64,000 nucleotides of DNA. Source: Candidatus Omnitrophota bacterium. GTDB lineage: Bacteria; Omnitrophota; Gorgyraeia; 1-14-0-20-64-10. Positions 4,039 through 59,857 of the stretch are shown one piece after another. The notes under the pieces are model-generated. The model saw only the letters and a list, made by a program, of their open reading frames with translations, was not told where the DNA came from and made no database searches. The first letter of the stretch is position 1. Every line of letters starts with the position of its first letter. The position numbers were made by a program, and so were the translations under genes. The stretch covers positions 5,385-69,384 of the forward strand of contig JACOVG010000012.1 in the NCBI GenBank assembly GCA_016177405.1, in the 5' to 3' direction.

Positions 4039-5015
4039 CCCAGCAGCGTTTTGAGGCACTCCTTAAAAAGTTCCGAAGCACCCGGGTCCTGGTGATCGGC
4101 GACCTGATCCTGGACGAGTTCATCTGGGGCAGCGTGGAAAGGATCTCGCCGGAGGCGCCGGTTCCGGTGGTCTGGGCCCAGCGGGAGTCGGTGATGCCGG
4201 GAGGCTCGGCCAACGTGGCCGGCAACGTGAAAGCCCTCGGGGGCCAGCCCCGCCTGCTGGGGGTCGTTGGAAACGATTCCGCCGGCGAGCGCCTGGTGAG
4301 GCAGCTGAAACAAACCCGCATTCCCACCGGCGACATCCTGACCGATCCCTCCCGTCCCACCACCGCCAAGACGCGCGTCATCGCGCACCATCAGCAGGTG
4401 GTTCGGATCGACCGGGAGCAGGTGAAGCCGTTCGCGGCGGGTCTGACCCGGCGGCTCATCCGGTCGGCCACGCGGATCATCCCGGAGGTGGAGGGGGTGA
4501 TCATCGAGGATTACGGCAAGGGCCTGATTGGCCGGGAGCTCTTAAAGCCGGTGGTGGCGCTGGCGAAGCGGCACCGCAAGGTGATCACGGTCGATCCCAA
4601 GGAGGAGCATTTCGACACCTACCGCGGGGTGACCGCTTTGACGCCCAACAAAAAAGAGGCGTCGCTGGCGGCCGGCTTTCCGATCACCGATCGCGCCAGC
4701 CTCCATCGGGCGGGCCAGGCGATCCTGAAGCGGTTGAACCCCGAGGCCATCCTGGTCACCCTGGGGGAGGAGGGGATGTGCCTTTTTTCCTCCGACGGGG
4801 CCAGGCCGGTTCATATCCCGACCGTGGCGCGGGAGGTCTTTGATGTCTCCGGCGCGGGGGACACCGTGATCTCGGTCTTCACCCTGGCGCGGGCGGCCGG
4901 GGCCAGCTTCCTGGAGGCGGCCGCGATCGCCAACGCCGCCGCCGGGGTGGTGGTGGGCAAGCTGGGCACCGCCACCTGCTCGGCCGATGAGCTTCGAAGG
5001 GCCGTCCTGGAATGA
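4035..5015 (+). CDS. hldA: D-glycero-beta-D-manno-heptose-7-phosphate kinase (RfaE/HldE domain I, pfkB family)
   Basis: Strong N-terminal similarity to E. coli HldE kinase domain (RVLVIGDLILDEFIWGSVERISPEAPVPVV; MPGGSANVA). ATGA overlap with the upstream gene. Confidence 0.8.
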   Translation: MTQQRFEALLKKFRSTRVLVIGDLILDEFIWGSVERISPEAPVPVVWAQRESVMPGGSANVAGNVKALGGQPRLLGVVGNDSAGERLVRQLKQTRIPTGDILTDPSRPTTAKTRVIAHHQQVVRIDREQVKPFAAGLTRRLIRSATRIIPEVEGVIIEDYGKGLIGRELLKPVVALAKRHRKVITVDPKEEHFDTYRGVTALTPNKKEASLAAGFPITDRASLHRAGQAILKRLNPEAILVTLGEEGMCLFSSDGARPVHIPTVAREVFDVSGAGDTVISVFTLARAAGASFLEAAAIANAAAGVVVGKLGTATCSADELRRAVLE

Positions 5016-44121: not shown

Positions 44122-45203
44122 TGGGCTGGCTGGCTTTCCTGGTCACCTTGAGCACCATCGTCCTTCTGCACGAGTGGGGCCATTTCATCATGGCCCGCAG
44201 GGTGGGCGTTAGGGTGGAGAGGTTTTCCCTGGGGTTTGGCCCGAAGATCCTGGGCGTCACCCGGGGCGGCACCGAGTATGTGGTGTGCCTGTTTCCGCTG
44301 GGCGGCTACGTGAAGATGGCCGGCGAGGCCATGGACCAGGGCCCGGCCCTTCATCCCTGGGAGTACCGGGCCCGCACCGTGGGAGAGCGGTTCTCGATCG
44401 TACTGGCCGGGCCCCTCATCAACTACGCCCTGGGCTTCCTCCTCTTCTTCGGCATTTATCTCGTCGGGGCGCCGATCCTTTCCGCGAGGATCGGCCAGGT
44501 CCTCCCCGATTATCCCGCCGCGCGAGCCGGCTTGAGGGACGGAGACCGGATTCTCGCGATCAACGGCAAGCCCATGGAAGGCTGGGAGGAAGTCACCCGG
44601 GCCATCCACGGCGAGCGGACCCGGTTGGTTTTGACGATTGAGCGGGACGGCGCCACCCTCACCCAGGCCGTTGAGCCGCGCCTTCAGGAGGCGACGAACA
44701 TCCTCGGGGTCAAGACGCGGATCGGAATGATCGGGATTGTCCCCTCCGAGGAGGTGATCACCCGGCGATACCCCCTGCCGCGGGCCTTGGTCAAAGCGGC
44801 CGACCGGGTCTGGGGCCTCACGTGGCTCACCCTCCAGGCCCTCTGGAGGATCGGCACCGGAGGACTCTCCCTCAAGGAATCGGTCACCGGCCCCATCGGC
44901 ATCTTCTACATCACCTCCTCGGCGGCGGCCCTGGGCTTTTTGTCTTTGCTTCAGCTGACGGCGGTTTTGAGCACCTCGATCGGCTTCTTCAACCTTCTGC
45001 CGATGCCGGTCCTGGACGGGGGGCACCTGGCCTTTCTCTTCATGGAGAAGATACGGGGCAGGCCGGTCAGCCTCCGGGCCCAGGAGGGGATGACGCGGGT
45101 GGGGTTCGGCCTGCTCCTTTTGCTCCTCGTCGTCGTGACCTACAACGATCTGGTGAAGTTCAAGCTGGTGGAGCGGATCTTTCCGTTTTTCGGTGGCAAC
45201 TAG
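44118..45203 (+). CDS. rseP: Site-2 zinc metalloprotease RseP (M50) with PDZ domain
   Basis: HEWGHFIMAR (HExxH), PDZ region, LDGGHL motif. Conserved uppS-cdsA-dxr-rseP-ispG synteny. Confidence 0.9.
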   Translation: MMGWLAFLVTLSTIVLLHEWGHFIMARRVGVRVERFSLGFGPKILGVTRGGTEYVVCLFPLGGYVKMAGEAMDQGPALHPWEYRARTVGERFSIVLAGPLINYALGFLLFFGIYLVGAPILSARIGQVLPDYPAARAGLRDGDRILAINGKPMEGWEEVTRAIHGERTRLVLTIERDGATLTQAVEPRLQEATNILGVKTRIGMIGIVPSEEVITRRYPLPRALVKAADRVWGLTWLTLQALWRIGTGGLSLKESVTGPIGIFYITSSAAALGFLSLLQLTAVLSTSIGFFNLLPMPVLDGGHLAFLFMEKIRGRPVSLRAQEGMTRVGFGLLLLLLVVVTYNDLVKFKLVERIFPFFGGN

Positions 45204-46857
45204 GCGTAAGAGCCGCCCGGTGCGCGTGGGCGGCGTGACGGTAGGCGGCGACGCTCCCCTGGCCGTCCAGTCCATGACCACCACCAACACGCTCGAGGTC
45301 GAAGCGACGGCGCGGCAGACCGCCGCCCTGGCCGCCGCCGGATGCGACATCGTCCGGATCACCACCCAGACCTCGGCCGAGGCCAAGGCCCTGGGGGAGA
45401 TCAAGAAGGTTCTCCGGTCAAGCGGCTCCACCACCCCCCTGGCGGCCGACATCCACTTCAACCCCAAGGCGGCCCTCGCCGCCGCCGACCACGCCGAGAA
45501 GGTGCGGGTCAACCCCGGCAACTTCGCCGACTCCAAGCGTTTTGCCCAACGCGGCTACACCGACGCCGAATATCAGGAGGAGCTTTCCCGGATCGCCCAG
45601 ACCTTCACCCCGCTCGTCGAGAAATGCAAGGCCCTGGGCAGGGCCATCCGGATTGGGACCAACCACGGCTCTCTTTCCGACCGGATCATGAACCGCTTCG
45701 GCGACACGCCCCAGGGGATGGTGGAATCGGCCCTGGAGTATCTCCGGGCGGCCGAGTCCAAGGGTTTTCAGGAGATCATTTTCTCGATGAAGGCCTCCAA
45801 CCCGGTCGTCATGCTGCAGGCCAACCGCCTGCTGGTGGATGCCCTGAACCGGCACGGCACTCCCTATCCCCTGCACCTGGGCGTCACCGAGGCCGGGGAA
45901 GGGGAGGATGCCCGGCTGAAGTCGGCCTTAGGGATAGGCGTCCTCTTGGCCGAGGGGATCGGCGACACGATCCGGGTGTCACTCACCGAAGATCCGGTGA
46001 AGGAAGTGCCGGTGGCCCGGGCCCTGGCCGGCTGGGCCCAAGCCCGCTGGCAAGGGGGGAAGGCGGTACCACCCCCCTTGAGGCCTTTTCATTGGGAGCG
46101 CCACCCGGCCAGCCCGGCCCTCTACGAAACGATCGTCATCGGCGGCCAGGAACCGGTGAAGGTGGGCCTGATGGCCGGCGATTATCCGCATCCGCGCCAG
46201 GCCGGCGGCCGGGAAACTCCTTGTGAGTTTGTTTTGGGGACTGCCCCGGATTCCAAATTCCATATCCTGCAGGCGGAGGAGTTGCTGGCCGAAGGACGCA
46301 AGCTGGCCCGCCAACTGGAGCAAGCGGGGGACAGGCGTCCTATCGTCCTGGTCTGGGATGCCCGGCGCTTCAAACAGGATGACATCGGCTTCCTTATTGA
46401 GGCGGCGGTGCAGATGGGGGGCCTGCTCGTGGATGGGATCGGCGACGCGGTCGTGATCCGCTCAATCCTTCCGGCCCAGCGGGTCCTTCAGCTTGCCTAC
46501 AATCTCCTTCAGGCGGCCCGCCGGCGTTCCTTCAAGACCGAGTACATCGCCTGCCCGGGCTGCGGCCGGACCCTTTTTGATTTGGAGTCCACCACCCAGC
46601 GGATCAAGGCCAGAACCGGCCACCTGAAAGGGGTCAAAATCGCGGTGATGGGCTGTATTGTGAACGGCCCCGGCGAGATGGCCGACGCCGACTTCGGCTA
46701 CGTGGGAGGCTCCCCCGGCACCGTGAACCTTTACGTCGGCAAGGAGATGGTGGAGCGGGCGATCCCCACGGCCCAGGCCGAGGAGCGCCTCATCGCCCTC
46801 ATCCAACACCACGGCAAGTGGGTGGAGCCCGAGAAATCTCACACGTTAAGGTTATAG
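45193..46857 (+). CDS. ispG: 4-hydroxy-3-methylbut-2-enyl diphosphate synthase, long form with inserted domain
   Basis: PVRVGGVTVGGDAPLAVQSMTTT, GCDIVRIT, C-terminal 4Fe-4S region YIACPGCGRT...MGCIVNGPGE. 554 aa, consistent with the insert-containing type. Confidence 0.9.
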   Translation: MATRRKSRPVRVGGVTVGGDAPLAVQSMTTTNTLEVEATARQTAALAAAGCDIVRITTQTSAEAKALGEIKKVLRSSGSTTPLAADIHFNPKAALAAADHAEKVRVNPGNFADSKRFAQRGYTDAEYQEELSRIAQTFTPLVEKCKALGRAIRIGTNHGSLSDRIMNRFGDTPQGMVESALEYLRAAESKGFQEIIFSMKASNPVVMLQANRLLVDALNRHGTPYPLHLGVTEAGEGEDARLKSALGIGVLLAEGIGDTIRVSLTEDPVKEVPVARALAGWAQARWQGGKAVPPPLRPFHWERHPASPALYETIVIGGQEPVKVGLMAGDYPHPRQAGGRETPCEFVLGTAPDSKFHILQAEELLAEGRKLARQLEQAGDRRPIVLVWDARRFKQDDIGFLIEAAVQMGGLLVDGIGDAVVIRSILPAQRVLQLAYNLLQAARRRSFKTEYIACPGCGRTLFDLESTTQRIKARTGHLKGVKIAVMGCIVNGPGEMADADFGYVGGSPGTVNLYVGKEMVERAIPTAQAEERLIALIQHHGKWVEPEKSHTLRL

Positions 46858-46949
46858 ATAGTCAGTAATTTACCTTGTTTTTTTGCCCAGAATCAGCCAT
46901 ACTTTCTGTAAGCTCCGGTAAATCGTCCTAGAGCTGCCGCAGCAACCCT

Positions 46950-49900
46950 ATGAGAACTAACACGTTAGCCGGCCTTGTCCGCCGATTTTTCGCTCTTTGG
47001 CTAATTCTGGCCCTCGCCTGCCCAGCCCCTGCCTACAGCCTCCGCGAATCCCAGGAAGACACCACCCTCGACGAGCTCCCCCGCGCCCTCACCGGCTTGG
47101 AGGAGACTCCATTACCCCTGCCTGCGGCATCCGGCAATGGCGATGAGATTCTCCGAGAGATTGCCGAGGCCAGGCGGTTGGCCGAGGGAAACACCCTTGA
47201 TCAGAATGTAACCACGATAGCCAGCGTGGCAGTTGACGGTTCTGAAAAGAGCATCCGAATGAGCTGGCAGGATGGGACGTGGGAAGATCTTTTCGACTCC
47301 TTCTCGGTAGCCGTCAAGACCTATCCCTTGCTAAGGCCCCTTGTTCCGGGCCCGGAGACAGTAACCGAGCAAGTCAGGCAAAAGATAGAAGAGGCGAAGG
47401 GCCTGGAGATCCCCGTTTTTAAAGGAGACGTCGGAGAGTTTTTCCTTTCTGTCGGGTCCGCGGCGCGGCTAAAAGAAGAACTACTGGTTTTAGGCCGTAA
47501 GCCCCCAAGCCGGCAGGAACTTGATGAGCTTGCGAGCTCTTTGCGGGAGGTGCTTGAAGAACCGCGTTCAGGCCGGACGGCCCGCCAGCGTTTGGACGCC
47601 CTGCGCGCTCAAGCGGGCGAGAAAGAGCGGCGTTCCCTCGAAAAAGCCATCCAAGCGATGGATGAGATGGTCAGGGAGTTTCTTGCCGACAACGAGACCA
47701 TCTGGAAGGCCATCGCCGTCTTAGAAAAGGCGGTCGGCGGCGATTTAAGAAGAGTTCCTGGCGGAGTGGCTGGCGACCTTCTTCGCCCGCTCACCCAAAG
47801 GGCCGGCGATTGGTTTTTATCCGGCCTTCTGCTTCGGGCCCTGCTTCAGGACTCTCCGGGCGAGAAGACGCTGGAGATAGAAAAGATCAAAAAGCGCCTG
47901 GCTCTCATGGAAGAGGAAAAGCGGTCGGTCTTGCGCTACCGGCTTTCCCGCCGCGCCGACGCCCGGGCGCTCCGGGCGGTCTTTTACGATGCCTATCGGC
48001 TGGCATTGTCGGCTGCCCTCGAGGCCTTGACGGAAGAGCTTTCCCAGGCCGACCCTGCCGACGAAGGTAGAGCCGTCGATCTTGAGATAAGAATCTGGCT
48101 GATGGGGTTTGAGGCGCTTCATCTGGTGAAGGAAGAAGCCGCCACCCAGGCGGTTTGGAGCTCCGCCAGAGAGGCCAGGCCAAGCGCCGGCCCCGTTAAC
48201 AACATCCGAAGGATGACTCCCTCGGTCGGCGTTTTGTTCCTCCGCCCCGATGGCACCTTGAGACGGTTTGTCCCAGGCGGCGGCAGCTTCCACGCCCCGC
48301 ACATGGTCGGTTATTTCACGCCCACCCGGTTTGCCCAGTGGTATGAGCCGGGCGACCGGATCTACCTTCTGGCCAACACCTTGACCGGCGCGCTTGCCCT
48401 GGATCAGTTCCGTTCTTATCTGGAATCGGTGAACCATCTCCAGGCGGTCTTCCCCGATCTGCCGACACCCGGTTTGGGGATAGCCACGGAAGGAGGGATC
48501 ACCCTCTACCATCCCAGGGCCTCGGCAGGTGATCCGTCGGGCTGGGAGAGGATCTGCGAGCCCGTCGCTTCCGCCCTCTCCTGCTACATTGAATTCTTCG
48601 ACCAGATGCACAAGGCGATTCTTAACGACGACGATAAATGGCGAAGGAAACTTGCCAGGGGTCAGTTCGGGAATCGATGGCAGAGCGTGGTGCGCGACGC
48701 CTATCCCGAAAAGAAATATCCCGGCCTCCTGGCCCAGGTTGCGAAGGATGTGACCATCCAGTTTGGAAAGAGGATTAGCAACCTGCGCGACGTAAAAAGC
48801 GGCGAGCTGGTTTACGAGATTGGCTTTCTGGAGGGGCAGGTCAATCGGATTGTGGGAGAGCGGATCACGCAGGGCCTTCTGGGAGGTTTTTTCACCGAAG
48901 AGAAGGTGTCCGGCCTGACCGATCGGCCATTCCCCGCGCCGACACCCCCCGGCGCTCCTGCCTCTCCGGCTGTCCCCCCGGCGGAAACTGTTCAGGAATC
49001 TCCCTTTGCCGCCTCCGCGGACGAAAGAGAAGTTTTTCCTGCCGGTCTCCTTCAGGAAGCCCCGCCCCTTACGGATCCCGACCCCGTCCGCCGCTTACTG
49101 GATGAGATGACCGGCCTTGCCTTCGCCGGGGGATATCTCCCGGACATGGTGAGCACGGAGTACGAGGACTTGGAGAGAAGGCAAATCCGCCTTGTCATGG
49201 ATGCCGGAGCATCTCGGGCGTTGCCCTTCCTCTTGGTCAGTCTGGAGTTCCCGGAGACCAAACTCTCCCCCCTTGCGCCGGAGCCCCGCGTAGGCGGTCG
49301 GCCGGTTGAGCGCCTTATCGTGAAGCGGATACGCAAGGAAGAGGCCTCGAGGATCGTGGAGGGCATGCCTGGCGCGGCCGTCTTCAAGGAGGTTATTCCC
49401 AAGGTGCAGCGCCTTTTGGATGCCGATGCCCCTCCCAAGGAGATGGAGGGGCCTGTCAAAGAGCTTCTCCCGGCCCTCGTCAAGTTTCTTGAGCAAGGGG
49501 GTGGCGGCAGAGGGCCTATGGAGCAGGCGGCCCAACGGCTTGAAACCGACCCAGCTTTCCGGGAAGTGATGGAGTTTCTGAAAAGGCGTTTGGACGTCAT
49601 GATGGAGGGGGATCTGCTGAACGAAGAGCTTTGGAGGAAGCGTGGAAAACTGGAGGCCGGTTGGGCGCGAGAGAGGATCGCCGCGTTTCGGAGCCGGCTC
49701 TCCGATCCGCGCATTCAGGCATGCCTGGACTGCGATCTTGAGAAGCTCCCTCTCCAGGGAAAGGTTTCCTACGACTTGGTTGCCGCGCCGGTTGCCGACG
49801 CGGAGGGCGCCGCCAGGCAAGGAGAGCTGCTGGCCCTCATGGAGCGGACAGATCTCAAGGCCCTGCGCCAGAGCTATGTGGAGGCCCTGCGCCTGGCCTG

Positions 49901-52900
49901 CTGGAAGAAGGCCATGGAGCTCCAGAGAGATTTAGAGACCCGGGCCTTGGACTACCGCTTTCAAAGGGAGTCTCTCGTCACCGCCATGCTTGCCCTCACC
50001 CTGGAGACAGGGGCTGTTTTGTCTTCGCTCATGCAGAGTCAGGCCGGCGAGATCCGAGCGAACGAATCGGTCAAGCGGACGCGGCTTGCCACAGGAATCG
50101 GGGTTCTTCTTTTAAATCAGGACAACTCGCCGGCGCGATTTGTCCCAGGCGGCGGGGGAATGGATCTGGTTCACCTGATGGGGACGCACTACAACCGCCA
50201 CTCCATTAGGCCATGGCACGAGAAGGGTCAGAAGATTGTCCTCTGCCAGCTTTCCTTCACCGGCCCCCCCGGCATGGATCAGCTGGCGGCCTTTTTGGAC
50301 GACTGGTTCTATCTTCAAAGAGGTCTGGACGGAAATCCGGAGATCCTTCTCGGGGTGGCGGCGGCAGATGGGGCGATGCGGGTTTATCGGCCCTCCGGTC
50401 CCCGCTTGCCTGCCGAGGATCCGGTGGGGTGGGCCCGGGTTAGAGATCGGGTGGAAACGGTCTATGGGGATCACTACAACAGGTTTATCGACGCCTTCAA
50501 GAAGCTGGAAGGCAGTCCCGAAAAGGGACCGGACGCGGCCCTGTATCGGGAGGCAGGCCTTCACTTCCGCTCAAGACTGCTTGAAGCCCTTCAAGAGAGT
50601 CTGCCGAATCCGATGCCGGAGCAGATCATGGCCAAGATCGAGGATCGTTTTGGCCCGGATTTGGACGAGCTCGCTCAGGACCCGAGGCCCATGAGGGTTT
50701 CCTCTTTGCTGGCCAAGGTAAAGGCGGCTGTTTCAGAGTGCCTGGCGGCCCACCTGATGGAGTCCGACCTCTTCGTCCCGGTGCAGGTGCCTGGGGTCAC
50801 GGGGAGACACAAAGCGGCCGCTGGTGGGGCCCTGCCGGCCGTTGTCAGGGAAATCCTGGAAATGAGAGAAAAGGCGGAGGGCGGATTCTTGGGTCCCAAC
50901 GTCACGGCCGCTTCCGCCAGCAAACTTTCCTGGACCGAGGTGCGGCTCTGGATGAACTGGACCGGTTCCCCTGAATATCCGGGGGGCCCCGTCGTCCTTC
51001 CCTTTGGGTCGCCCGCCATGCGGCCCTTGGCTCCGGATCTTGAATTGCTGGAGCCCGAGGTTCGAGAGGCCATCTCGCGGGGGAAACGTTGGCAGGTGAG
51101 CCGTTTGGGGCGGGATGCCGGGCTCAAGGAGATGCGCGGCAATCCGGCCATTTCCGCGCTGGAGAAGCTCCTCCTGCCTTTTGAGAAGGGGGAGCTGGTT
51201 CAGGAGACAGAAGAGGATTCCAAGGCCGCCGTGAAAGCTGTTAAAGAGAGAGGCGAGTACGCCGCTTGGGAAAAGAGGTTGGCCAGAGATCGCAGCGCCC
51301 CGGAGAAGACAAAATTCAAACAGTGGCTTCGTGAGGAATCCTACAAAGAGCTTGAAAGGATCTTGAGGGAAAAAGAGAGAAAAATCAGGCAGAAACCGCC
51401 TCCCAAGCCGCGGGAGCTTCTCGCGGCCAGCCGGGCGGTTCTGGAATACGTCCCGAACAAGGGCCGGCCTGATTTCCGCGAACGCCCCGATCTGGCGCCG
51501 GCGATTTCCGAGGCCAAGATCCTCTTTGAGAAAATCCTTCGCCTGGCCCAGCGGATCATGCAGGCCAGGGTCTTGCTGGAGAGGGCCGCCCCATCGGGCA
51601 AGGTTCCGGCGGCGCCGGCCATATCCTGCTTGGAGCCGCTGATGGGCGATACGGAAGGCTGGCCCACCGTCTCGATTAAGATGAGACGCCAGCTGGAAAA
51701 TCTGAAGGCCCTTTCCCCCGAGAGCCGGGTGAATCTGGAGGAGATCCTGCAGATCGTTGAAGAGGCCAGGGAAGAGGCGATCACCTGGCACACCTTCTTA
51801 ACTTTCTCCAGGGTTCCCTGGGCTCCCCTGCGCCTGGTGTATTACGACGTCTACAGAAGCGTTCTTTTGGACGAGGTAAAACGGTTGGAGCTCCTCGCGC
51901 CTGAAACGAATGGGCAGGAACTGGAATGGCAAAGCCGCGCCGTCGCGCTGGAAATCATGCACGCGGAGCTGGAAGCGGCCTTCTCCTCCCTCCTGCAGAG
52001 GTGGGCCCGGCCGCCGGAAGAGAAGGAGAGCGATCAATTCACCCACCCGGTGGAGGGATCCGGCCTGCTTGTTCTGGATCAGGCCCTCCGGCCGGTCCGG
52101 TTCATCCCCGGCGGCGGGCAGTTTGTGGGGGTGACGATTCTGGCCCCCTATTACGATCCCATTCGGGTGAAGGAATGGACGGGCGAGGCCGGCCAGGCGG
52201 TCTATCTCTACAACACCGTCTCTGGCTGGCCGGCCGTCGAGTCCCTCGACTATTACTGCGCGGCCGCGCGTCTTTTCTCCGCCATGTATCCCGGGGCGGC
52301 CCTCCCCTGGTTCGGGGTGGCGGCCCCCTCCGGCGTCCGGGTGTACCGGCCCCGAGAGGATCTGGCCTCGCCATCCGGGTTAGGCCGCGCGTACGATCCG
52401 ATCGCCCGGGAGGAGGCCCGCTTTAAGCGGTTTACCATAGGCCTGGACATTCGGTTCCTTAGAATATCGAAAGAGGATATCCGCTTCCTGTTCCTGGCGC
52501 GAGGCCAGTTCCTGGGCGAGCTGGAAAAGGTCTTGAGGGACGTTTTTGACGAAGCAACCGTTCAGGAGATGATGCGAGAGGTTCGGGATCGTTTGGGCCA
52601 ATCCATCGAGGCGCTTGATCCCGACGAGAAGAATCTCGACGCGCTTGGGCTGGCGTTCGCGCGTCTGGTTGTTTCGGTCAGGCGCTTGATTGGGGAGCTG
52701 GCCGCTCCCCATCTGCTGGATGAGCTTTTCGAGGAGGTTCAGGTGGACTGGGAACACCCTGTCCAGCCGCTTGCGATTCCGCCGCCGGCACAGGCGCCGC
52801 CGGAGCAGGCGGTTGAGCGCGAACCCGAGACCACCGCCCCCGCCCCTCTTTTGCTGAAGCTGGACGACCAGGCAGCCGAAGCCGGCCCTCCTCCGCAACC

Positions 52901-55900
52901 GATGCCCGGGGAAGCAGGGGGCAAGCCAGCCAAGGGAAGCAAGGGGCCTCAAGGGGAGGATGTGAAACTGAAGGCGGCGGCCCGTGAGATCGCTTCAAAT
53001 CTGGCAGGTCTGGCAGATGCCGCGGGATTCCGAGGGCGCTGGGTTGAGAGACTGCTGGCCGAGAAAGTTCGCGAGAGACTCAAGGGCAACAACTCCTGGC
53101 AGCCCACCAATGGCATAGAGCCATTCCGGCAGGTATTGGTGCAGGGCCGCGAGAAGCACCACAGGCAGGGGGTTGAGTTGGCCGGGGCGATCGGCAAATG
53201 CAAGACGTCGGAAGAACTGGAACGGCTGAAGGGCCAAGTGGACGGCCTTGGGGACGATGAGGTTGACAAGCTTTATGAAGATAAGAAGCGGAATATAGTC
53301 CACCAGGGCTTGGCCGAGCAGGCGGTAGGAGACCCTGTCTTTCAAGCCTGGTGGCCGCCCAACAGGATTCAGGCGGAAGCTCTTGGTCTTCTTAAGAAAA
53401 ATCCAGGGTGGACTTACGAGGATCTGAAATCGAAACTGCAGAAGATCCGGAAGAGTTGGGAGGAAGAGGCCCGTCAGCGGGAGGAGGCCCGGATGTTAGC
53501 CGCGTCAGAAAGGATTCTTGAGGCGGCAGGGAAAGAGCCCTCTCTTCAGGGACTCGCGCAGGAGAGGCTGGGCGCCCTCGCGGCGGCTTTTCTTAAGGAG
53601 AAACCCAAAGGAACTCCTGCCGACTTTGTTGCGCAGCTTAGGGAGATGATGTCCCAAGAGGGACAGAAGAAGAGAGGGGAGCTCAAGCGGCTCTGCCTTG
53701 GAAAGACGCAAGAAGCAGGGGTCTCTCTGGACTGGATCTTTCCCAGCAATCTCCTGGAGTTGGAGGCGGACGTCTATCTCGACAAAGATTCCTCGCCTAG
53801 CCCGGAGGGTTTTATCGCCCACCTAAAAGAGCTGGCGAAGCAAAGACGTTGGAAGGAACTGCGTGAAATAGGGATTCAAGCAAATGCCAGTGAGCAGTTT
53901 GGCCTTTCGTTCGTACAGATTGAAGAGGAAGCAAGAGGCCACGTCTCTGCAGCACCCTTCACCGACTGGGACCAGGATCAGGGGGCTTTCGTCGAACGCC
54001 TGCGTGAGCGGGCCGCCCAGCTTGGGGAAGAACTAAGAAGAGACCTTATCCGGCGGGTGAGCCAGGCGGTAAGAAGCGCCCTGAACCCTGACTACTGGGG
54101 ATTCGAAGAGGGCTGGCTTGAGGCCCAGGCGGAAAGCTGGCTTACCGCGGTGCCATTATCGTTTGACCCCGACCAGCCGGAGGCCTTCCTCCGCCAGGTG
54201 AAGCTCGAGCGCCTCATTCGGGAGGCCCAGACAGCCCAGGAGCTTACGGAGTTTTCCATTCCTCCCGATGTCGTCCGGCAGGAGGCGGAAAGGCTTCTCG
54301 CTGAACAGGGGATAGAGGAGATAAAGAGAACACCCATCTGGTTCGTTGATCGGCTCTACAAGATTTACGACGCCAAGAAGAGAGAGGAGGAAGCCAAGAA
54401 GAAGGGGTGGGCCGGCCGCGTAGGGAAGGCGACCAGTTCCAAGGAGCTGGCGGAACTTCTGTCACAGCCCGACTTTCCGGAAGAGCTGCGGCCCGTCGCG
54501 GAAAACCGACAACAGCTCTTTCTCCTGGTGGAAACGGCGAGAGAGAGCGCCCTGCTGCGGCAGGCCGGTTTTTCTGACGACGAGCTGATTCAGGAGGCAG
54601 CCCAATTGTTGTCTGGTGGAGAGCCGGTCACGCCGGCCGGTTTTGTAAAGCGCCTTCATAAGATCTGGCGAGAAAGGGAGGCGCTCAAAAGAGCCGAGCG
54701 CATCGAACAACTTCTGGCGGCGGCAAAGGCTGACCCTCCCGAGGGGGGCTGGATCTTCAATGGAGCAGAGCTTCTTGAGCGGGCCACCGGCTTTCTTGAG
54801 TTCTCCGGCGCGCGGGAACCGGTGCCGGCCGACTTCGTGGCCCAACTCAAACAGGAGCAGGCCAGGAAGAAGCTTGAGGCGGAGGAAAAACGGGTGAGAA
54901 CCCTGGTGGAAGCGGCTCAAGCCGCCTCGGACCGCTCCCAGTGGCCTTTTTCAGATGCCGAGCTTGAGGCCATGGTCAGGGTCTTTCCCGGGAATGATCC
55001 CGCGGCTTTTCTAGCCCACCTTCGAAGGAAGATTGAAGAGGAGAGGGTGAGAAAAGAAGAGCAGAAGCGTAGGGAGGAGCAGGCGCGCCTGCAGGGATTT
55101 CTGGAGGGCTTCAACCATATCAATACCGAGAGAGGATGGGGGGTATCGCCAGAGCGCGCGCTGGCCGCCGCCCAATCCCTCCTTCGGGAAAGCCCATCTG
55201 CCACCGTTGATCAGATGGTCGAGCTTCTTGAGCCCGCCAGCCCGGAGCAAGTCCGGCAGGCGCTCTCGGCTTGGAACCAGGCAGCCGATGAAAGGGTGGA
55301 TTTCGGAAACCAAGAAGGCGCTTTCACGATCAGCGCCACAGAGCTCTTGGATCCAAACCTCTGGTATTTGACTTCTCATGCCAGCGTAGGGGTGGAAAGG
55401 ATCGAGCGGACCCTGGAGGCGGCCCGATCAAATCCGGACCCCGAGAAAGGGGTGAAGCGGCTGGCGAGCGTAGAGACCTTCCTCGAAGAATTCGGGCAGG
55501 CCATCAACGACCTCCCGCTGGAGCGGGGGAGGAAATTGGATGGTCTGACCCCCTACAGCGTTTTTAGGGAGCGCTTTATGACGGGCAGCGATACTCCGGC
55601 AACTCGAATGGAAGCAGTCAGGCAGTACTTGGACGTTCTGAAGAATCGGATCCGCACGATAAAACAGACAGCCCTCTTGAGGCGGCTCAAGGAGTATTTG
55701 ACTGGCCGGTGGAGCATCGAAGAGGACAGGGAAGAACCCACCGCGTCGCTCATTTCTCCGGACGCGTTGATTCCATTGTTGGTCGAAGATGTGAACAAGG
55801 GCTGGACCTCTTTGCGGGCGGCGAAACTCCTTGAGGCGGGCAAGACGTTCATCGGGGCCCATCCATGGTATCCGTCGGGTCTGCTGGCCATGAACGTCCA

Positions 55901-56774
55901 GACCCTCTCGACCACCGACGGGGTTTCTCCAGATGAGGTTTTGGCTCTTCTTGACGCAGCGCTTGCTCGGCAGAAAGAGAATCCGAAGTCCCTGGGAGAG
56001 GTGGTGGCGATGGAGGACCACCTCACAGAGATGATTGCCCAGCGGCTCGAAGAATCGGCTGCCGTGGGAGAATCCGATGCCGGGCTGGAGGAGGCGAGGC
56101 CGACCCCAGCGGTGCGGATCCCGGAGGGGGATGAGGTGGTTGATCTGGGGACACTGGAGGGGGGGGAGACTCTTGGCTTATGGATTTTTCCGGGAAATGG
56201 GGAACGATCCCTGATTGGCCGGATCTTGATAGATGGAGAAGTGAAGGGCGCGGTTTTTCTAAGATTCCCCAATGAGACTGCCGTGCTGGGCGATATCCTT
56301 GTGGGTGAAGAAAAAGGGATGCCAGATCCGCTCCATCGAGGCAGAGGGGTTGGGACGAAGGTTATGGATTGGATTCTTCGAAATCGCATACCGCCCCGCG
56401 TGCGCCACCTTACAGCCGTTGTGAGGAATCCATACCTCCTGGCTCTTTTTAAGAATCTGGAAGAGAGGAAACTGCTGATGGAAGCCACGGTAAGCGGCAG
56501 AGGTTTGGACGTCTGGATAGCTGATTTCTTAAGAGAGCATGAACTGAACAGACTGCAGGATGAGTACGGGACCATTGACGTAGATTTTAGAGCGGGATTG
56601 AACTCAAACCATGTTGTTGCTGGCCCCTCGACTGGGCCCGGGGCCGGCCTGGAGGAGGCGAGGAGGGTGGAGGCGCTGTTCGCGCTGGAGCGGGCGGCCG
56701 GTGAAGCCGGCGTGCCGGCGGGCGATTCAAGCGAAAAGGCCGAGGAGGTTCGCGCCCACGGCGGCATGCTATAA
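46950..56774 (+). CDS. Giant multidomain protein 3 (3274 aa). Signal peptide, three tandem copies of a roughly 630-aa module, a charged helical region with P-x-x-F-[VIL]-x-x-L repeats, and a C-terminal GNAT N-acetyltransferase domain. Carries 3 [SAT]GLEE motifs.
   Basis: Signal MRTNTLAGLVRRFFALWLILALACPAPAYS-LRE. Module signature RFVPGGG at nt 48264, 50136 and 52098 (the third copy reads RFIPGGG). GNAT motif LHRGRGVGTKVMDWIL flanked by DAGLEEAR and GAGLEEAR. Confidence 0.75.
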   Translation: MRTNTLAGLVRRFFALWLILALACPAPAYSLRESQEDTTLDELPRALTGLEETPLPLPAASGNGDEILREIAEARRLAEGNTLDQNVTTIASVAVDGSEKSIRMSWQDGTWEDLFDSFSVAVKTYPLLRPLVPGPETVTEQVRQKIEEAKGLEIPVFKGDVGEFFLSVGSAARLKEELLVLGRKPPSRQELDELASSLREVLEEPRSGRTARQRLDALRAQAGEKERRSLEKAIQAMDEMVREFLADNETIWKAIAVLEKAVGGDLRRVPGGVAGDLLRPLTQRAGDWFLSGLLLRALLQDSPGEKTLEIEKIKKRLALMEEEKRSVLRYRLSRRADARALRAVFYDAYRLALSAALEALTEELSQADPADEGRAVDLEIRIWLMGFEALHLVKEEAATQAVWSSAREARPSAGPVNNIRRMTPSVGVLFLRPDGTLRRFVPGGGSFHAPHMVGYFTPTRFAQWYEPGDRIYLLANTLTGALALDQFRSYLESVNHLQAVFPDLPTPGLGIATEGGITLYHPRASAGDPSGWERICEPVASALSCYIEFFDQMHKAILNDDDKWRRKLARGQFGNRWQSVVRDAYPEKKYPGLLAQVAKDVTIQFGKRISNLRDVKSGELVYEIGFLEGQVNRIVGERITQGLLGGFFTEEKVSGLTDRPFPAPTPPGAPASPAVPPAETVQESPFAASADEREVFPAGLLQEAPPLTDPDPVRRLLDEMTGLAFAGGYLPDMVSTEYEDLERRQIRLVMDAGASRALPFLLVSLEFPETKLSPLAPEPRVGGRPVERLIVKRIRKEEASRIVEGMPGAAVFKEVIPKVQRLLDADAPPKEMEGPVKELLPALVKFLEQGGGGRGPMEQAAQRLETDPAFREVMEFLKRRLDVMMEGDLLNEELWRKRGKLEAGWARERIAAFRSRLSDPRIQACLDCDLEKLPLQGKVSYDLVAAPVADAEGAARQGELLALMERTDLKALRQSYVEALRLACWKKAMELQRDLETRALDYRFQRESLVTAMLALTLETGAVLSSLMQSQAGEIRANESVKRTRLATGIGVLLLNQDNSPARFVPGGGGMDLVHLMGTHYNRHSIRPWHEKGQKIVLCQLSFTGPPGMDQLAAFLDDWFYLQRGLDGNPEILLGVAAADGAMRVYRPSGPRLPAEDPVGWARVRDRVETVYGDHYNRFIDAFKKLEGSPEKGPDAALYREAGLHFRSRLLEALQESLPNPMPEQIMAKIEDRFGPDLDELAQDPRPMRVSSLLAKVKAAVSECLAAHLMESDLFVPVQVPGVTGRHKAAAGGALPAVVREILEMREKAEGGFLGPNVTAASASKLSWTEVRLWMNWTGSPEYPGGPVVLPFGSPAMRPLAPDLELLEPEVREAISRGKRWQVSRLGRDAGLKEMRGNPAISALEKLLLPFEKGELVQETEEDSKAAVKAVKERGEYAAWEKRLARDRSAPEKTKFKQWLREESYKELERILREKERKIRQKPPPKPRELLAASRAVLEYVPNKGRPDFRERPDLAPAISEAKILFEKILRLAQRIMQARVLLERAAPSGKVPAAPAISCLEPLMGDTEGWPTVSIKMRRQLENLKALSPESRVNLEEILQIVEEAREEAITWHTFLTFSRVPWAPLRLVYYDVYRSVLLDEVKRLELLAPETNGQELEWQSRAVALEIMHAELEAAFSSLLQRWARPPEEKESDQFTHPVEGSGLLVLDQALRPVRFIPGGGQFVGVTILAPYYDPIRVKEWTGEAGQAVYLYNTVSGWPAVESLDYYCAAARLFSAMYPGAALPWFGVAAPSGVRVYRPREDLASPSGLGRAYDPIAREEARFKRFTIGLDIRFLRISKEDIRFLFLARGQFLGELEKVLRDVFDEATVQEMMREVRDRLGQSIEALDPDEKNLDALGLAFARLVVSVRRLIGELAAPHLLDELFEEVQVDWEHPVQPLAIPPPAQAPPEQAVEREPETTAPAPLLLKLDDQAAEAGPPPQPMPGEAGGKPAKGSKGPQGEDVKLKAAAREIASNLAGLADAAGFRGRWVERLLAEKVRERLKGNNSWQPTNGIEPFRQVLVQGREKHHRQGVELAGAIGKCKTSEELERLKGQVDGLGDDEVDKLYEDKKRNIVHQGLAEQAVGDPVFQAWWPPNRIQAEALGLLKKNPGWTYEDLKSKLQKIRKSWEEEARQREEARMLAASERILEAAGKEPSLQGLAQERLGALAAAFLKEKPKGTPADFVAQLREMMSQEGQKKRGELKRLCLGKTQEAGVSLDWIFPSNLLELEADVYLDKDSSPSPEGFIAHLKELAKQRRWKELREIGIQANASEQFGLSFVQIEEEARGHVSAAPFTDWDQDQGAFVERLRERAAQLGEELRRDLIRRVSQAVRSALNPDYWGFEEGWLEAQAESWLTAVPLSFDPDQPEAFLRQVKLERLIREAQTAQELTEFSIPPDVVRQEAERLLAEQGIEEIKRTPIWFVDRLYKIYDAKKREEEAKKKGWAGRVGKATSSKELAELLSQPDFPEELRPVAENRQQLFLLVETARESALLRQAGFSDDELIQEAAQLLSGGEPVTPAGFVKRLHKIWREREALKRAERIEQLLAAAKADPPEGGWIFNGAELLERATGFLEFSGAREPVPADFVAQLKQEQARKKLEAEEKRVRTLVEAAQAASDRSQWPFSDAELEAMVRVFPGNDPAAFLAHLRRKIEEERVRKEEQKRREEQARLQGFLEGFNHINTERGWGVSPERALAAAQSLLRESPSATVDQMVELLEPASPEQVRQALSAWNQAADERVDFGNQEGAFTISATELLDPNLWYLTSHASVGVERIERTLEAARSNPDPEKGVKRLASVETFLEEFGQAINDLPLERGRKLDGLTPYSVFRERFMTGSDTPATRMEAVRQYLDVLKNRIRTIKQTALLRRLKEYLTGRWSIEEDREEPTASLISPDALIPLLVEDVNKGWTSLRAAKLLEAGKTFIGAHPWYPSGLLAMNVQTLSTTDGVSPDEVLALLDAALARQKENPKSLGEVVAMEDHLTEMIAQRLEESAAVGESDAGLEEARPTPAVRIPEGDEVVDLGTLEGGETLGLWIFPGNGERSLIGRILIDGEVKGAVFLRFPNETAVLGDILVGEEKGMPDPLHRGRGVGTKVMDWILRNRIPPRVRHLTAVVRNPYLLALFKNLEERKLLMEATVSGRGLDVWIADFLREHELNRLQDEYGTIDVDFRAGLNSNHVVAGPSTGPGAGLEEARRVEALFALERAAGEAGVPAGDSSEKAEEVRAHGGML

Positions 56775-56782
56775 TGCCGGGC

Positions 56783-58078
56783 ATGCGGTGGACCGAGGCG
56801 CACATTCCGACGTTAAGGGAGACCCCGGCCGAGGCGGAGATCGCCAGCCACCGGCTGATGTTGAGGGCCGGGTTGATCCGCAAGCTCTCCTCCGGCACCT
56901 ATTCCTACCTCCCCTTGGGCCAGCGCTCCCTCTCGAAGGTCATCCGGATCATCCGCGAGGAGATGGATCGCTCCGGCGCCCTGGAGGTTCTTCTTCCGGC
57001 GCTTCAGCCGGCGGAGCTTTGGAAGCGCTCGGGCCGGTACGAGCTGATGGGCCCGGAGATGATCCGGTTCAAGGACCGCCACGGCAAGGAGATGGTGCTG
57101 GGCCCCACCCACGAGGAGGTGATCACCTCCTTGGTCTCCGGCGAGCTCCGCTCCTACCGGGACCTGCCGAAAACCCTCTACCAGATCCAGGTGAAATTCC
57201 GGGATGAGCCCAGGCCCCGCTTCGGCGTGATCCGCTCCTCGGAGTTCCTCATGAAGGACGCCTACAGCTTCGACCGGAACGAGGCGGGCCTGAACGCCAA
57301 TTACCAGAAGATGTTGGAGGCCTACCGCCGGATCTTTGAGCGCTGCGGGCTCGCGGCCTTGCCGGTGGAGGCGGAAACCGGCTTCATGGGGGGGTCGGAT
57401 TCCCACGAGTTCATGGTCCCGGCGGCCAGCGGCGAGGACACGGTGGTCCGGTGCTCGGGGTGCGCCTACGCCGCTTCCAAAGAGAAGGCGGCCGCCCAGC
57501 TGGCCAAGCCGGTTCAGGAAGGGAGCCCTTGCCCCAAGTGCGGCAAGCCGCTCGCCCTGCTGGCCGCCATCGAGGTGGGCCACATCTTCAAGCTGGGCAC
57601 CAAGTATTCGGCCAAGCTCGAGGCCCTCTTTTTGGATGAGGACGGCAAGGAGAAGCCGTTTGTCATGGGCTGTTACGGGATCGGCGTCACCCGGATCCTG
57701 GCGGCGGTCATCGAGACCCGCCACGACGATTTTGGGATCCAGTGGCCGGCGGAGGTGGCCCCTTACCCGGCGGTGATCGTGCCGATCAACCTCTCGGACG
57801 CCAAGACCCGGCAGGCCGCCGAGGATCTTTACCAGGGGATGGCCCAGGCGGGGCTGGAGGTCCTGCTGGACGACCGGGAGGTCTCCGGCGGCGTGAAGAT
57901 GAAGGACGCCGACCTGATCGGTTTCCCCATCCGGGTGCTGATCAGCGAGAAGACCCTTCAGAAATCCTCCGTGGAAGTGAAGCTCCGCTGTGAGAAAGAA
58001 ACCAGCCTCGTCACGCCTGCCGAAGCGATTTCCCTCGTCAAGAACCGTCTTGACAAGGGGTCTTCCCCCGTCGGATAA
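56783..58078 (+). CDS. proS: Prolyl-tRNA synthetase, short form lacking the INS editing domain
   Basis: MRWTEAHIPTLRETPAEAEIASHRLMLRAGLIRKLSSGTYSYLPLG aligns with the E. coli ProS N-terminus. Class II motifs. 432 aa. The ORF-track start 56774 overlaps the giant 3 stop by 1 nt. Confidence 0.9.
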   Translation: MRWTEAHIPTLRETPAEAEIASHRLMLRAGLIRKLSSGTYSYLPLGQRSLSKVIRIIREEMDRSGALEVLLPALQPAELWKRSGRYELMGPEMIRFKDRHGKEMVLGPTHEEVITSLVSGELRSYRDLPKTLYQIQVKFRDEPRPRFGVIRSSEFLMKDAYSFDRNEAGLNANYQKMLEAYRRIFERCGLAALPVEAETGFMGGSDSHEFMVPAASGEDTVVRCSGCAYAASKEKAAAQLAKPVQEGSPCPKCGKPLALLAAIEVGHIFKLGTKYSAKLEALFLDEDGKEKPFVMGCYGIGVTRILAAVIETRHDDFGIQWPAEVAPYPAVIVPINLSDAKTRQAAEDLYQGMAQAGLEVLLDDREVSGGVKMKDADLIGFPIRVLISEKTLQKSSVEVKLRCEKETSLVTPAEAISLVKNRLDKGSSPVG

Positions 58079-58121
58079 TACCCTTACATCTAGAGGAGGA
58101 CCGCCCATCCGGCGGTAACCC

Positions 58122-58150
58122 AAGTGGGAGCTTTGCGTCCCACTTTTTTG
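58122..58150 (+). terminator. Rho-independent terminator after proS
   Basis: AAGTGGGA-gctttgcg-TCCCACTT followed by a TTTTTTG run. Confidence 0.75.
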
Positions 58151-58169
58151 TTCTAGGAAAGAGTGAAGG

Positions 58170-58637
58170 ATGTTCGATCAAGAAGCGATCATCGAGAGGG
58201 TCAAGGCGCTCGTGGCGCCGCTTTTGGCCGGCCGCCGGGCCGATCTGGTGGAGCTCACCTATCGCTTTGAGGGCTCCCGGATGGTCCTGCGGTTTCTGGT
58301 GGACACGGCGCGGGGGATCACCCTGGACGAGCTGGGCCGCTTGAACCAGGCGATCGGCGCCCTGCTGGACGAGCGCGACGCGATCCCCTCGGCCTACGTG
58401 CTGGAGGTGAGCTCGCCGGGGCTGGACCGGCCGCTTAAGACGCCACTCGACTTTGAGCGGATGATCGGCCGGCGGATCAAGGTGAGCACGGCGGTTCCTG
58501 TAGCCGGCCGGCGGGAGCTGGCCGGAGAGCTGGTCAACGCCAACGAGGAGGCGATTCAACTGAAGCTGGACAACGGCGAAAAAACGCGAATTCTTCTTAC
58601 CGAGGTGGTCCGCGCCGTGCAGGACGTGGAGATCTGA
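58170..58637 (+). CDS. rimP: Ribosome maturation factor RimP
   Basis: LVELTYRFEGSRMVLRFLVD...LEVSSPGLDRPL. Upstream of nusA. RBS GAAGGA. Confidence 0.9.
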   Translation: MFDQEAIIERVKALVAPLLAGRRADLVELTYRFEGSRMVLRFLVDTARGITLDELGRLNQAIGALLDERDAIPSAYVLEVSSPGLDRPLKTPLDFERMIGRRIKVSTAVPVAGRRELAGELVNANEEAIQLKLDNGEKTRILLTEVVRAVQDVEI

Positions 58638-58653
58638 TGGGGGCGGCCTTAAG

Positions 58654-59856
58654 GTGAACGCGGAATTCTTGGCGGTCATTGACCAGATGACCCGGGAGAA
58701 GGGGATCGACCGGGAGGTGGTGCTGGAGGCGGTGGAGTCGGCCTTGGCCTCCGCCGCCCGCAAGGTGGTGGGCCCCGAGGGGGGCGAGGTCTCGGTCAAG
58801 ATCGACCGGACGACCGGCGCCATCAAGATCTTCTCGGGCGATCAGGAGCTTTCCGGGGCGGGCCTGGGCCGGATCGCGGCCCAGACCGCCAAGCAGGTGA
58901 TCATCCAGAAGCTTCGGGGGGCCGAGCGGGAGGTGGTTTACCACGAGTTTTCTCACCGCGCCGGCACCCTGATCAGCGGCACCATGCACCGCTTCGAGCG
59001 GGGCGCCGTGATCGTGGATCTGGGCAAGACCGAGGCGATTCTCCCCAAGCGGGAACAGTCTCCCAAGGAGAGCTTCCGCCCCGGCGACCGGATCCGGGCC
59101 TACTGCCTGGAGGTCAGCAAGGCGGCCAAGGGGCCGCAGGTGATTCTCTCCCGCGTCCACCCCTTGCTGGTGAATGAGCTCTTCAAGCTGGAGGTCCCGG
59201 AGATCGCCCAGGGGATCGTGGAGATCAAGTCCGTCTCGCGCGAGCCCGGCGACCGCTCGAAGATCGCCGTCTACTCGAAGGACGAGAAGGTGGATGGGGT
59301 GGGGGCCTGCGTGGGGATGCGCGGAACGCGGGTCAAGGACATCGTCCGGGAGCTGCAGGGTGAGAAGATCGACATCATCCGGTACTCGCCGAAGCTGGAC
59401 GAGTACGTGACGGCCGCTCTGGCCCCGGCCCAGGTGGCCGAGATCACGATCTCGCCGGACAAGAAGCGGGCCGCGGTCGTGGTGGAGGACGATCAACTGT
59501 CGCTGGCGATCGGCAAGAAGGGGCAGAACGTCCGTTTGGCCGCGAAGCTCACGGGCCTGGACATCGACATCCGTTCCAAGACCCAGAAGGAGATCCTTTC
59601 CAAGATGTCGGTGAGCGACCTGGCTGGGGTGGGGCCCAAGATGCTCGAAGAGCTTAACCAGGCCGGATACACCTCGGTCTTCAAGGTCGCGCAAACGACC
59701 CTGGAGGACCTCTTGAAGGTGAAGGGAATCGGCGAGAAAACGGCGGTGAAACTGCTTGAGGGGGCCAGAGAGCTCATTCAGAAACTCGAGGCCAAGGCCC
59801 AGGTTCAGGAAACCGCCGAGCCCGAGCCCGAAAAGAAGGAGGCCGCCGGGGAATAA
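58654..59856 (+). CDS. nusA: Transcription termination/antitermination factor NusA
   Basis: N-terminal domain [35 protein letters not shown]1 and KH domains. GTG start. Confidence 0.9.
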
Positions 59857-59857
59857 G

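Follow-up and report, generated by a model that had tools for sequence, protein, structure and literature searches.

A 64,000-nucleotide stretch of contig JACOVG010000012.1 of Candidatus Omnitrophota bacterium (assembly GCA_016177405.1; hereafter the window) contains a very long open reading frame (ORF), here called giant 3, whose product carries three tandem homologous copies of a module of about 600-650 residues. This module is a previously undescribed domain family, rare and, where the organism is named, almost confined to Omnitrophota, with one contig attributed to Planctomycetia. The copies are ancient, models predict that each forms a single compact unit, and a small alpha/beta core within it bears a weak resemblance to the RadC/JAB (MPN) fold. 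The translation of giant 3 is identical to MBI1953088.1, annotated at NCBI as 'MAG: hypothetical protein HYS41_03070 [Candidatus Omnitrophica bacterium]' (MAG, metagenome-assembled genome). Coordinates of all features are collected in Table 1.

The motifs RFVPGGG, RFVPGGG and RFIPGGG start at residues 439, 1063 and 1717 of giant 3 (nt 48264, 50136 and 52098), with spacings of 1872 and 1962 nt, as a preliminary description of this DNA had reported; 2.5e-5 occurrences of RF[VI]PGGG would be expected from the protein's own composition, against 3 observed. BLASTP within the N-terminal 1,960 residues aligned copy 1 with copy 3 over 650 columns (aa 1-640 vs 1291-1960, E=1e-28), copy 1 with copy 2 over 286 columns (E 4e-21) and copy 2 with copy 3 over 361 columns (E 4e-18), the identity among the three being about 25%. 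The internal similarity is thus significant, with E-values in the range of 1e-18 to 1e-28. That the repeat is a product of chance or low complexity, or that the ORF is not a real gene, has a negligible probability in view of these values and of the motif count, and it is also at odds with 34 further homologous representatives (E 1e-139 to 3e-7) and with confident AlphaFold2 models.

Boundaries drawn with a hidden Markov model (HMM) place the three copies at 47124-52790, a wider region than the 47900-52450 that had been flagged. A linker of 26 residues, 35% of them proline, separates copies 1 and 2. The helix motif noted upstream of each core is real, with the family consensus YYDAxR; the segment assigned to it in copy 2, LDYRFQRESLVTAMLAL, is a different, later and non-homologous helix, and the true counterpart is listed in Table 1. 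The downstream element is real as well, in the form Y[RH]P followed by D/S-P-x-G-W/L, and its family consensus is RxYRPxxxxxDxxxW.

The triplication is ancient, as had been proposed, and not a recent DNA duplication, because nucleotide identity between the copies is about 41% over aligned codons and each copy has its best match in another protein. The same codon is used at only 54-63 of 139-163 identical residues (approximately 40%), and the sole blastn match between copies is 20 nt long and lies at the motif itself. The best BLASTP partners of the three copies are modules of the homologues P0009, P0019 and P0010, never a sister copy. Between P0002, P0003 and P0004 the tandem copies correspond as orthologues by position, first to first, second to second and third to third, and multi-copy arrays are therefore older than the divergence of these lineages.

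An exhaustive HMMER search was performed with a profile of the three copies against 1.84 billion proteins, each the representative of a cluster at 50% identity. It returned 35 proteins at E<=0.001, 17 of them at E<=1e-30, each with between one and five copies of the module; the majority are very large proteins (up to 7,288 aa) or fragments truncated by contig ends. Two members, giant 3 among them, have an NCBI name, and both come from Omnitrophica MAGs. A scan of one genome per species (185,579 species) with the pattern [PL][RA]RF[VI]PGGG[ASG] confirmed three loci, two in Omnitrophota MAGs and one in a MAG labelled Planctomycetia, a count that underestimates the family since the pattern requires the canonical motif, missing from many copies. 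The latter locus, L004 (CAYJQV010000052.1, 'uncultured Planctomycetia bacterium'), is either a mis-binned or misclassified Omnitrophota contig, or an indication that the family extends to other lineages of the Planctomycetes-Verrucomicrobia-Chlamydiae (PVC) group. The module has no match in Pfam, NCBIfam or the PDB sequences, including all 47 family copies against Pfam at E<=10. The earlier statement that no known domain is recognisable thus holds for sequence searches; what can be added to it is a weak resemblance of the core, at the level of fold, to RadC/JAB (MPN) domains without their metal site.

The core motif had been described as invariant, which is true within giant 3 and does not extend to the family. 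Across the 47 copies its residues are conserved at 72% (R), 74% (F), 51% (P), 98% (first G), 66% (second G, with A in 26%) and 81% (third G), and variants include RFDVGGD, RFVPGAG, RLALGAS, CFFEGAG, RFEEGAG, RFYEGGG and SVFEGGD. In module-1 numbering only G427, G443 and G515 are conserved in at least 90% of copies. Conservation of polar residues is moderate (R365 83%, Q485 81%, D346 79%, R439 72%, D468 70%), and in the YYDAxR helix motif the aspartate and arginine are kept in 79% and 83%, respectively. No conserved His, Cys or Ser/Asp set was found across the 47 copies, and the module lacks conserved catalytic residues.

Modelling of one module, one of the checks proposed in the preliminary description, gave confident results. 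The AlphaFold2 model of aa 317-559, based on 47 family sequences, has a predicted local distance difference test (pLDDT) score of 88.6, while that of the whole of module 1, based on 19 sequences, has a pLDDT of 80.1 and a predicted template modelling score (pTM) of 0.82, consistent with one compact unit. The predicted module opens at its N-terminus with a short helix and a small beta element that includes a PLxPDPR motif and is modelled poorly. A long antiparallel helical bundle containing the YYDAxR helix comes next, then the alpha/beta core (aa 425-522, about 100 residues), and C-terminal helical hairpins close the unit. The elements of the modelled core run b-b-[GGG turn]-b-b-a-b-a-b-b (b, strand; a, helix). 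The three glycines (aa 443-445) form a beta-turn between strands 2 and 3 (aa 437-442 and 446-449) in a block with a pLDDT of 94. A Rossmann or P-loop reading of GGG was considered and rejected on account of this predicted hairpin turn between two strands and of the variability of the motif.

Comparison of the core with known structures by Foldseek gave non-significant matches, among which RadC/JAB and MPN domains are the fold family that recurs at the top ranks in both PDB and BFVD. The top PDB match was the MPN pseudo-deubiquitinase KIAA0157 (5cw3_B, E 0.076, TM 0.22, 133 columns), and the RadC/JAB structure 2qlc was matched with a probability of 0.94 and a target-normalised TM of 0.54 over about 100 columns. 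In BFVD three phage RadC proteins were found (E 0.056, 0.076 and 0.48; probability 0.89-0.92 for the two best). The whole module gave nothing better than E 0.77 against PDB, the matches being scattered helical-bundle proteins, including IpaD/SipD and AhlB. Alignment of the trimmed core profile with a profile of 102 RadC-JAB sequences by hhalign covered 60 columns with a score of 17.6 (P 0.018, probability 2.6%) and in the register expected, from the VLFLD-type strand 1 to the strand and loop that hold HNHPSG in RadC. None of 200 column-permuted profiles reached this score (mean 10.8, standard deviation 2.1, maximum 17.5), although permutation is a lenient null that wipes out local strand-like patterns; the reversed profile scored 9.3.

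RadC-like JAB domains (PF04002; E. coli YicR, PDB 2QLC) share with the core a length of about 100-120 residues and the order b-b-Gly turn-b-a-b-a-b-b; the same order of elements was seen when the sequence of the YicR JAB domain was read against the model. The JAMM motif E...HxH-x7-S-x2-D is however absent from the module. Where RadC has ILAHNHPSGxxEPSxxD the family has VLLYPSxTGxPNxEQ, His-x-His being replaced by Y-P-S or similar residues with no conserved Glu, Ser or Asp, and in giant 3 the aligned positions read LLANTLTG, LCQLSFTG and YLYNTVSG. Since it has neither the JAMM motif nor a conserved His in 47 copies, the module is not an active JAMM enzyme, and its core, if it is related to JAB/MPN domains, is a version that has lost activity, as in the MPN-minus type. 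RadC domains belong to small cytoplasmic proteins, whereas the core of the module lies within about 500 residues of helical bundle and recurs in tandem in apparently exported giants.

Export of giant 3 is suggested by its N-terminus, where the segment MRTNTLAGLVRRFFALWLILALACPAPAYS-LR displays the features of a Sec-type signal as read from sequence, namely a basic region, a hydrophobic core and a small-x-small site. Residues 5-23 are the sole strongly hydrophobic stretch of the protein on the Kyte-Doolittle scale; the only other window above the cutoff of 1.5 is a marginal one in module 2 (aa 1009-1027, mean 1.63), with no equivalent in modules 1 and 3. Homologues share the N-terminal signature PPxSA[YF]ALR. 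In its extended form, this lineage-specific signature consists of basic residues, a hydrophobic helix, PPxSA[YF]ALR and then [AS]GLEE within about 5-25 residues, and it was seen at 46950-47105, 21518-21710 and 32908-33015 of the window and at the N-termini of P0004, P0005, P0009, P0024, P0026, P0031, P0032 and others. It resembles a Sec signal with an AxA site, yet is unusually conserved, and no NCBIfam sorting-signal model matches it. A lipoprotein signal (LALAC) was rejected, as this is not a canonical lipobox and there is no Cys at that place in giant 2 and most homologues.

These features make it rather probable, in our judgement, that giant 3 is exported and acts as a scaffold without catalysis, its modules being rigid helical bundles with a pseudo-JAB/MPN-like core and its RF[VI]PGGG motifs structurally constrained beta-turns. 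The core would then be a pseudo-enzyme of the MPN-minus type, a reading based on the missing JAMM zinc site and on the fact that only glycines are near-invariant. The motif would be a tight turn retained for its backbone geometry, rather than a catalytic or nucleotide-binding loop. Giant 3 itself would probably be an elongated scaffold of the cell envelope or surface, with its three modules serving as rigid spacers and binding units. MPN-minus pseudo-deubiquitinase scaffolds (KIAA0157/Abraxas with BRCC36, Rpn8, CSN6) likewise combine a dead MPN-type core with long flanking helices, which mediate assembly in those proteins, although they are eukaryotic and cytosolic, while giant 3 is bacterial and apparently exported. 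By this analogy the match to 5cw3_B is consistent with the module being an interaction scaffold, and we infer the functional likeness from it. No JAB family that could represent an MPN-plus partner was found among the window proteins scanned against Pfam.

Several points weigh against this proposal, the leniency of the permutation null among them. None of the fold matches is significant, the best Foldseek E-values being 0.03-0.16 and hhalign probabilities 1.3-2.6%. Alignment of the core with the single YicR sequence by hhalign gave no signal, and hmmscan of the 47 copies against Pfam at E<=10 detected no JAB family (PF04002 RadC, PF14464 Prok-JAB, PF01398 JAB); JAB chains were also absent among the matches of the family profile to PDB sequences in hmmsearch. 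The alignments behind the two models are shallow, with 47 and 19 sequences, and export was read from residue patterns in the sequence. The evidence on all family members comes from sequence and models. In addition, R365, Q485, D346, R439 and D468 could form a binding or catalytic site, and the sugar-metabolism enzyme domains of the sister giants leave room for an enzymatic role of the module.

Such a role, in which the module would be a new enzyme with a binding site for phosphate, a nucleotide or a sugar-phosphate made up of the Gly-rich RFxPGGG loop and the moderately conserved R, D, Q and YPSxTG residues, appears improbable. Its main support comes from the PfkB, aminotransferase, GlpX-type fructose-bisphosphatase (GlpX-FBPase), transaldolase and glycosyltransferase family 5 (GT5)-like domains found in giants 1 and 2 and in ORF 19-3006 of the window; a second enzyme-bearing giant adjoins the homologue P0002, several polar positions are 70-83% conserved, and Gly-rich loops are often phosphate-binding. 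However, no polar residue reaches 90% conservation, the motif decays to RLALGAS, CFFEGAG or SVFEGGD in many copies, and the modelled glycines lie in a hairpin turn and not at a strand-helix junction as in Rossmann and P-loop sites. Neither sequence nor fold pointed to an enzyme family, and tandem arrays of 1-5 copies per protein are more typical of structural modules. The module may, on the other hand, represent a truly new fold, its likeness to RadC/JAB being due to convergence of small alpha/beta topologies, and still serve as a spacer or adhesin-like unit of a surface protein. This is a tenable if unlikely explanation, favoured by the non-significance of all fold matches, including the best PDB E-value of 0.77 for the whole module, and by published proposals that giant ORFs of Omnitrophota with little annotation function in adhesion or predation (Seymour et al. 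2023, PMC10066038; West-Roberts et al. 2023, bioRxiv 10.1101/2023.11.21.568195). It is harder to reconcile with the recurrence of one fold family among the top-ranked matches in two independent libraries, with an hhalign alignment in the same register that scored above 200/200 permutations, and with the agreement in secondary-structure order, as we read the YicR sequence against the model.

A toxin or translocon-like unit directed at prey cells, in which a small head domain would sit on a long helical bundle, similar to tip proteins of type III secretion systems (IpaD/SipD) or to ClyA-family alpha-pore-forming toxins, is very improbable. It would fit the predatory or parasitic lifestyle proposed for some Omnitrophota (Seymour et al. 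2023; West-Roberts et al. 2023), and IpaD/SipD, AhlB, PaxB and Cry6Aa do appear among the whole-module Foldseek matches, but these are weak (E>=1.4, TM<=0.26). The modules have no hydrophobic hairpin or tongue, the marginal window in module 2 being the only one in them above the cutoff, and the syntenic core-genome position among housekeeping genes, described below, also argues against a toxin.

Table 1. Positions of the features of giant 3, of the other giants and of ORF 19-3006 in the window (nt of the window; residues of the respective product)
Feature	Position	Strand	Residues	Details
Giant 3 ORF	46950-56774	+		9,825 nt, 3274 aa; sequence-identical to NCBI MBI1953088.1
Signal-like N-terminal segment	46950-47039	+	1-30	Basic n-region, hydrophobic aa 5-23, PAPAYS-LR; read from sequence
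First T-GLEE motif of giant 3	47094-47105	+	49-52	Just ahead of module 1
Module copy 1	47124-48929	+	59-660	Boundaries from hmmsearch with three-copy profile; AlphaFold2 whole-module model
YYDAxR helix motif, copy 1	47982-47999	+	345	FYDAYR
Alpha/beta core, copy 1	48222-48515	+	425-522	RFVPGGG 48264-48284; AlphaFold2, Foldseek, hhalign
Module copy 2	49008-50810	+	687-1287	HMM boundaries
YYDAxR counterpart, copy 2	49875-49892	+	976	YVEALR
Alpha/beta core, copy 2	50094-50393	+	1049-1148	RFVPGGG 50136-50156
Module copy 3	50817-52790	+	1290-1947	HMM boundaries; abuts copy 2 directly
YYDAxR counterpart, copy 3	51840-51857	+	1631	YYDVYR
Alpha/beta core, copy 3	52056-52352	+	1703-1801	RFIPGGG 52098-52118
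Tail repeats of giant 3	53508-55094	+	2187-2715	At least 7 tandem helical repeats of ~62 aa; W-x-F...L...P-x-x-F-[VI]-x-x-L
C-terminal GNAT-like domain	56085-56645	+		PF00583, E 0.0013, 19.5 bits, under the 20.7-bit cutoff; bracketing A-GLEE motifs 56082-56093, 56646-56657
Giant 1	21518-32872	+		3784 aa; signal-like N-terminus; PfkB kinase aa 971-1243, class I/II aminotransferase aa 3219-3581
Giant 2	32908-39597	+		2229 aa; signal-like N-terminus; GlpX-type FBPase aa 134-373, transaldolase aa 1667-1902
ORF 19-3006	19-3006	+		995 codons from TTG at nt 19; GT5 starch/glycogen-synthase-like domain, two GLEE motifs

Beyond the modules, giant 3 continues through another Pro-rich linker into tandem repeats of about 62 residues. 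Single weak matches to this unit follow closely on the last of the tandem modules of P0002 (aa 3104-3179) and P0004 (aa 2512-2583), which suggests that an element behind the modules is conserved and became amplified in giant 3. The sub-threshold GNAT-like domain near the C-terminus contains a motif-A-like RGRGVG, read by eye, and has no match among PDB sequences. Giants 1 and 2 have in common a C-terminal domain of about 200 residues (32294-32872 and 39070-39597; 36% identity, E 2e-19), absent from giant 3, which begins straight after a GLEE motif and ends in ...LLEAA and ...LLKAA, respectively. BLASTP of the C-termini of giants 1 and 2 and of the tail and C-terminus of giant 3 against the module-family proteins returned nothing, so neither the shared domain nor the tail is demonstrably family-wide.

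The enzyme-like domains of giants 1 and 2 are divergent and of cytoplasmic type, with scores far under the NCBIfam equivalog cutoffs; a stand-alone, well-scoring gene of the PfkB kinase family (E 3e-39) is located at 4035-5015 of the window, alongside the divergent PfkB-like domain of giant 1. ORF 19-3006 may represent the C-terminal portion of another giant, the fourth, whose start would lie upstream of the window. A comparable enzyme-bearing giant lies upstream of the homologue P0002 (L008 1-1501), with ROK, epimerase and abhydrolase domains.

A short motif, [AS]-G-[LM]-E-E, recurs in all of these proteins of the window, with 11 occurrences in giant 1 (21698-32308), 5 in giant 2 (33004-39084), 3 in giant 3 (47094, 56082 and 56646) and 2 in ORF 19-3006 (445 and 2950). 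In the 35 family proteins G[LMIV]EE was counted 71 times, against 9.6 +/- 3.3 in shuffled sequences (approximately 7-fold enrichment), and is preceded by A or S in 63 of the 71. In the window, GLEE-type motifs bracket every Pfam-matched domain and occur inside none; these are the PfkB and aminotransferase domains of giant 1, the GlpX-FBPase and transaldolase domains of giant 2, the GNAT domain of giant 3 and the GT5 domain of ORF 19-3006. The searchable literature mentions neither the module nor AGLEE/SGLEE in Omnitrophota. The motif could be a linker, docking or processing signal, and together with the N-terminal signature shared by many family members it suggests a lineage-specific system of modular, signal-bearing giants.

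One speculative extension, to which only a small probability can be assigned, is that the giants and their Omnitrophota relatives are exported modular polyproteins or multi-enzyme scaffolds in which [AS]-G-[LM]-E-E delimits the units and serves for processing or docking. In that case the pseudo-JAB modules of giant 3 would act as partners without catalysis of their own, either recognising these sites or keeping a processing enzyme in place. This idea is compatible with the enrichment of the motif, with its position around domains and with the appearance of the modules as a dead peptidase/isopeptidase fold, and the role of the modules in it is modelled on the pairing of MPN-minus with MPN-plus proteins. 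Motifs that bracket enzyme-like domains in signal-bearing giants are perhaps a more surprising lead than the module itself, and processed polyproteins or exported multi-enzyme scaffolds, if confirmed, would be unusual for bacteria.

The giant 3 gene is located between ispG and proS-rimP-nusA-infB, in a 64-kb same-strand run of housekeeping genes. The orthologues P0002 and P0004 occupy a conserved slot, ligA-xerD-[giant]-rbfA-nrnA-truB-ribF-rpsO, from which the context of P0007 differs; no conserved neighbours are common to the window, P0007 and the P0002/P0004 group. The module giants are core-genome genes and not obvious mobile cargo. In L007 (4749-15128) and L008 (10001-28756), as in the window (45193-62290), the giants abut a piece of the canonical rimP-nusA-infB-rbfA-truB-rpsO cluster, which may be a coincidence. 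All giants and every scanned ORF with a family match are on the + strand throughout the window (1-64000), cumulative GC skew rises along its whole length, and neither tRNA genes nor Rfam matches were found in it.

Giant ORFs have been described in Omnitrophota before (Seymour et al. 2023; West-Roberts et al. 2023). These exceed 20 kb and encode many transmembrane helices; SecA-DEAD-like, discoidin, laminin-G or dockerin domains are frequent in them, with a divergent SecA DEAD helicase domain in most, and they are described as poorly conserved and of unknown function. Giant 3 resembles them in its phylum, its large size and its few annotated domains, but differs in being 9.8 kb long, with one N-terminal hydrophobic segment and no SecA, DEAD, discoidin, laminin-G or dockerin domain. 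A Pfam/NCBIfam scan for classical adhesin repeats (Ig-like/Big, cadherin, RTX, FN3, dockerin) found no match in giant 3, P0007, P0009, P0010 and P0016, and the only repeat model matched in P0004 was an N-terminal WD40 propeller. The module is best seen as a repeated structural unit with a degenerate fold of a known type, in a new family, and by analogy would work most like the MPN-minus scaffolds.

Giant unannotated proteins occupy a considerable part of Omnitrophota genomes, which are otherwise reduced. For one recurrent building block of such giants, boundaries, a consensus, a structure predicted with confidence and a fold assignment open to testing are now defined. The module dates far back, keeps its genomic position in at least one subgroup and hardly occurs outside the phylum, and thus provides a handle for domain annotation, in the form of a Pfam-type family, as well as for structural and biochemical tests.

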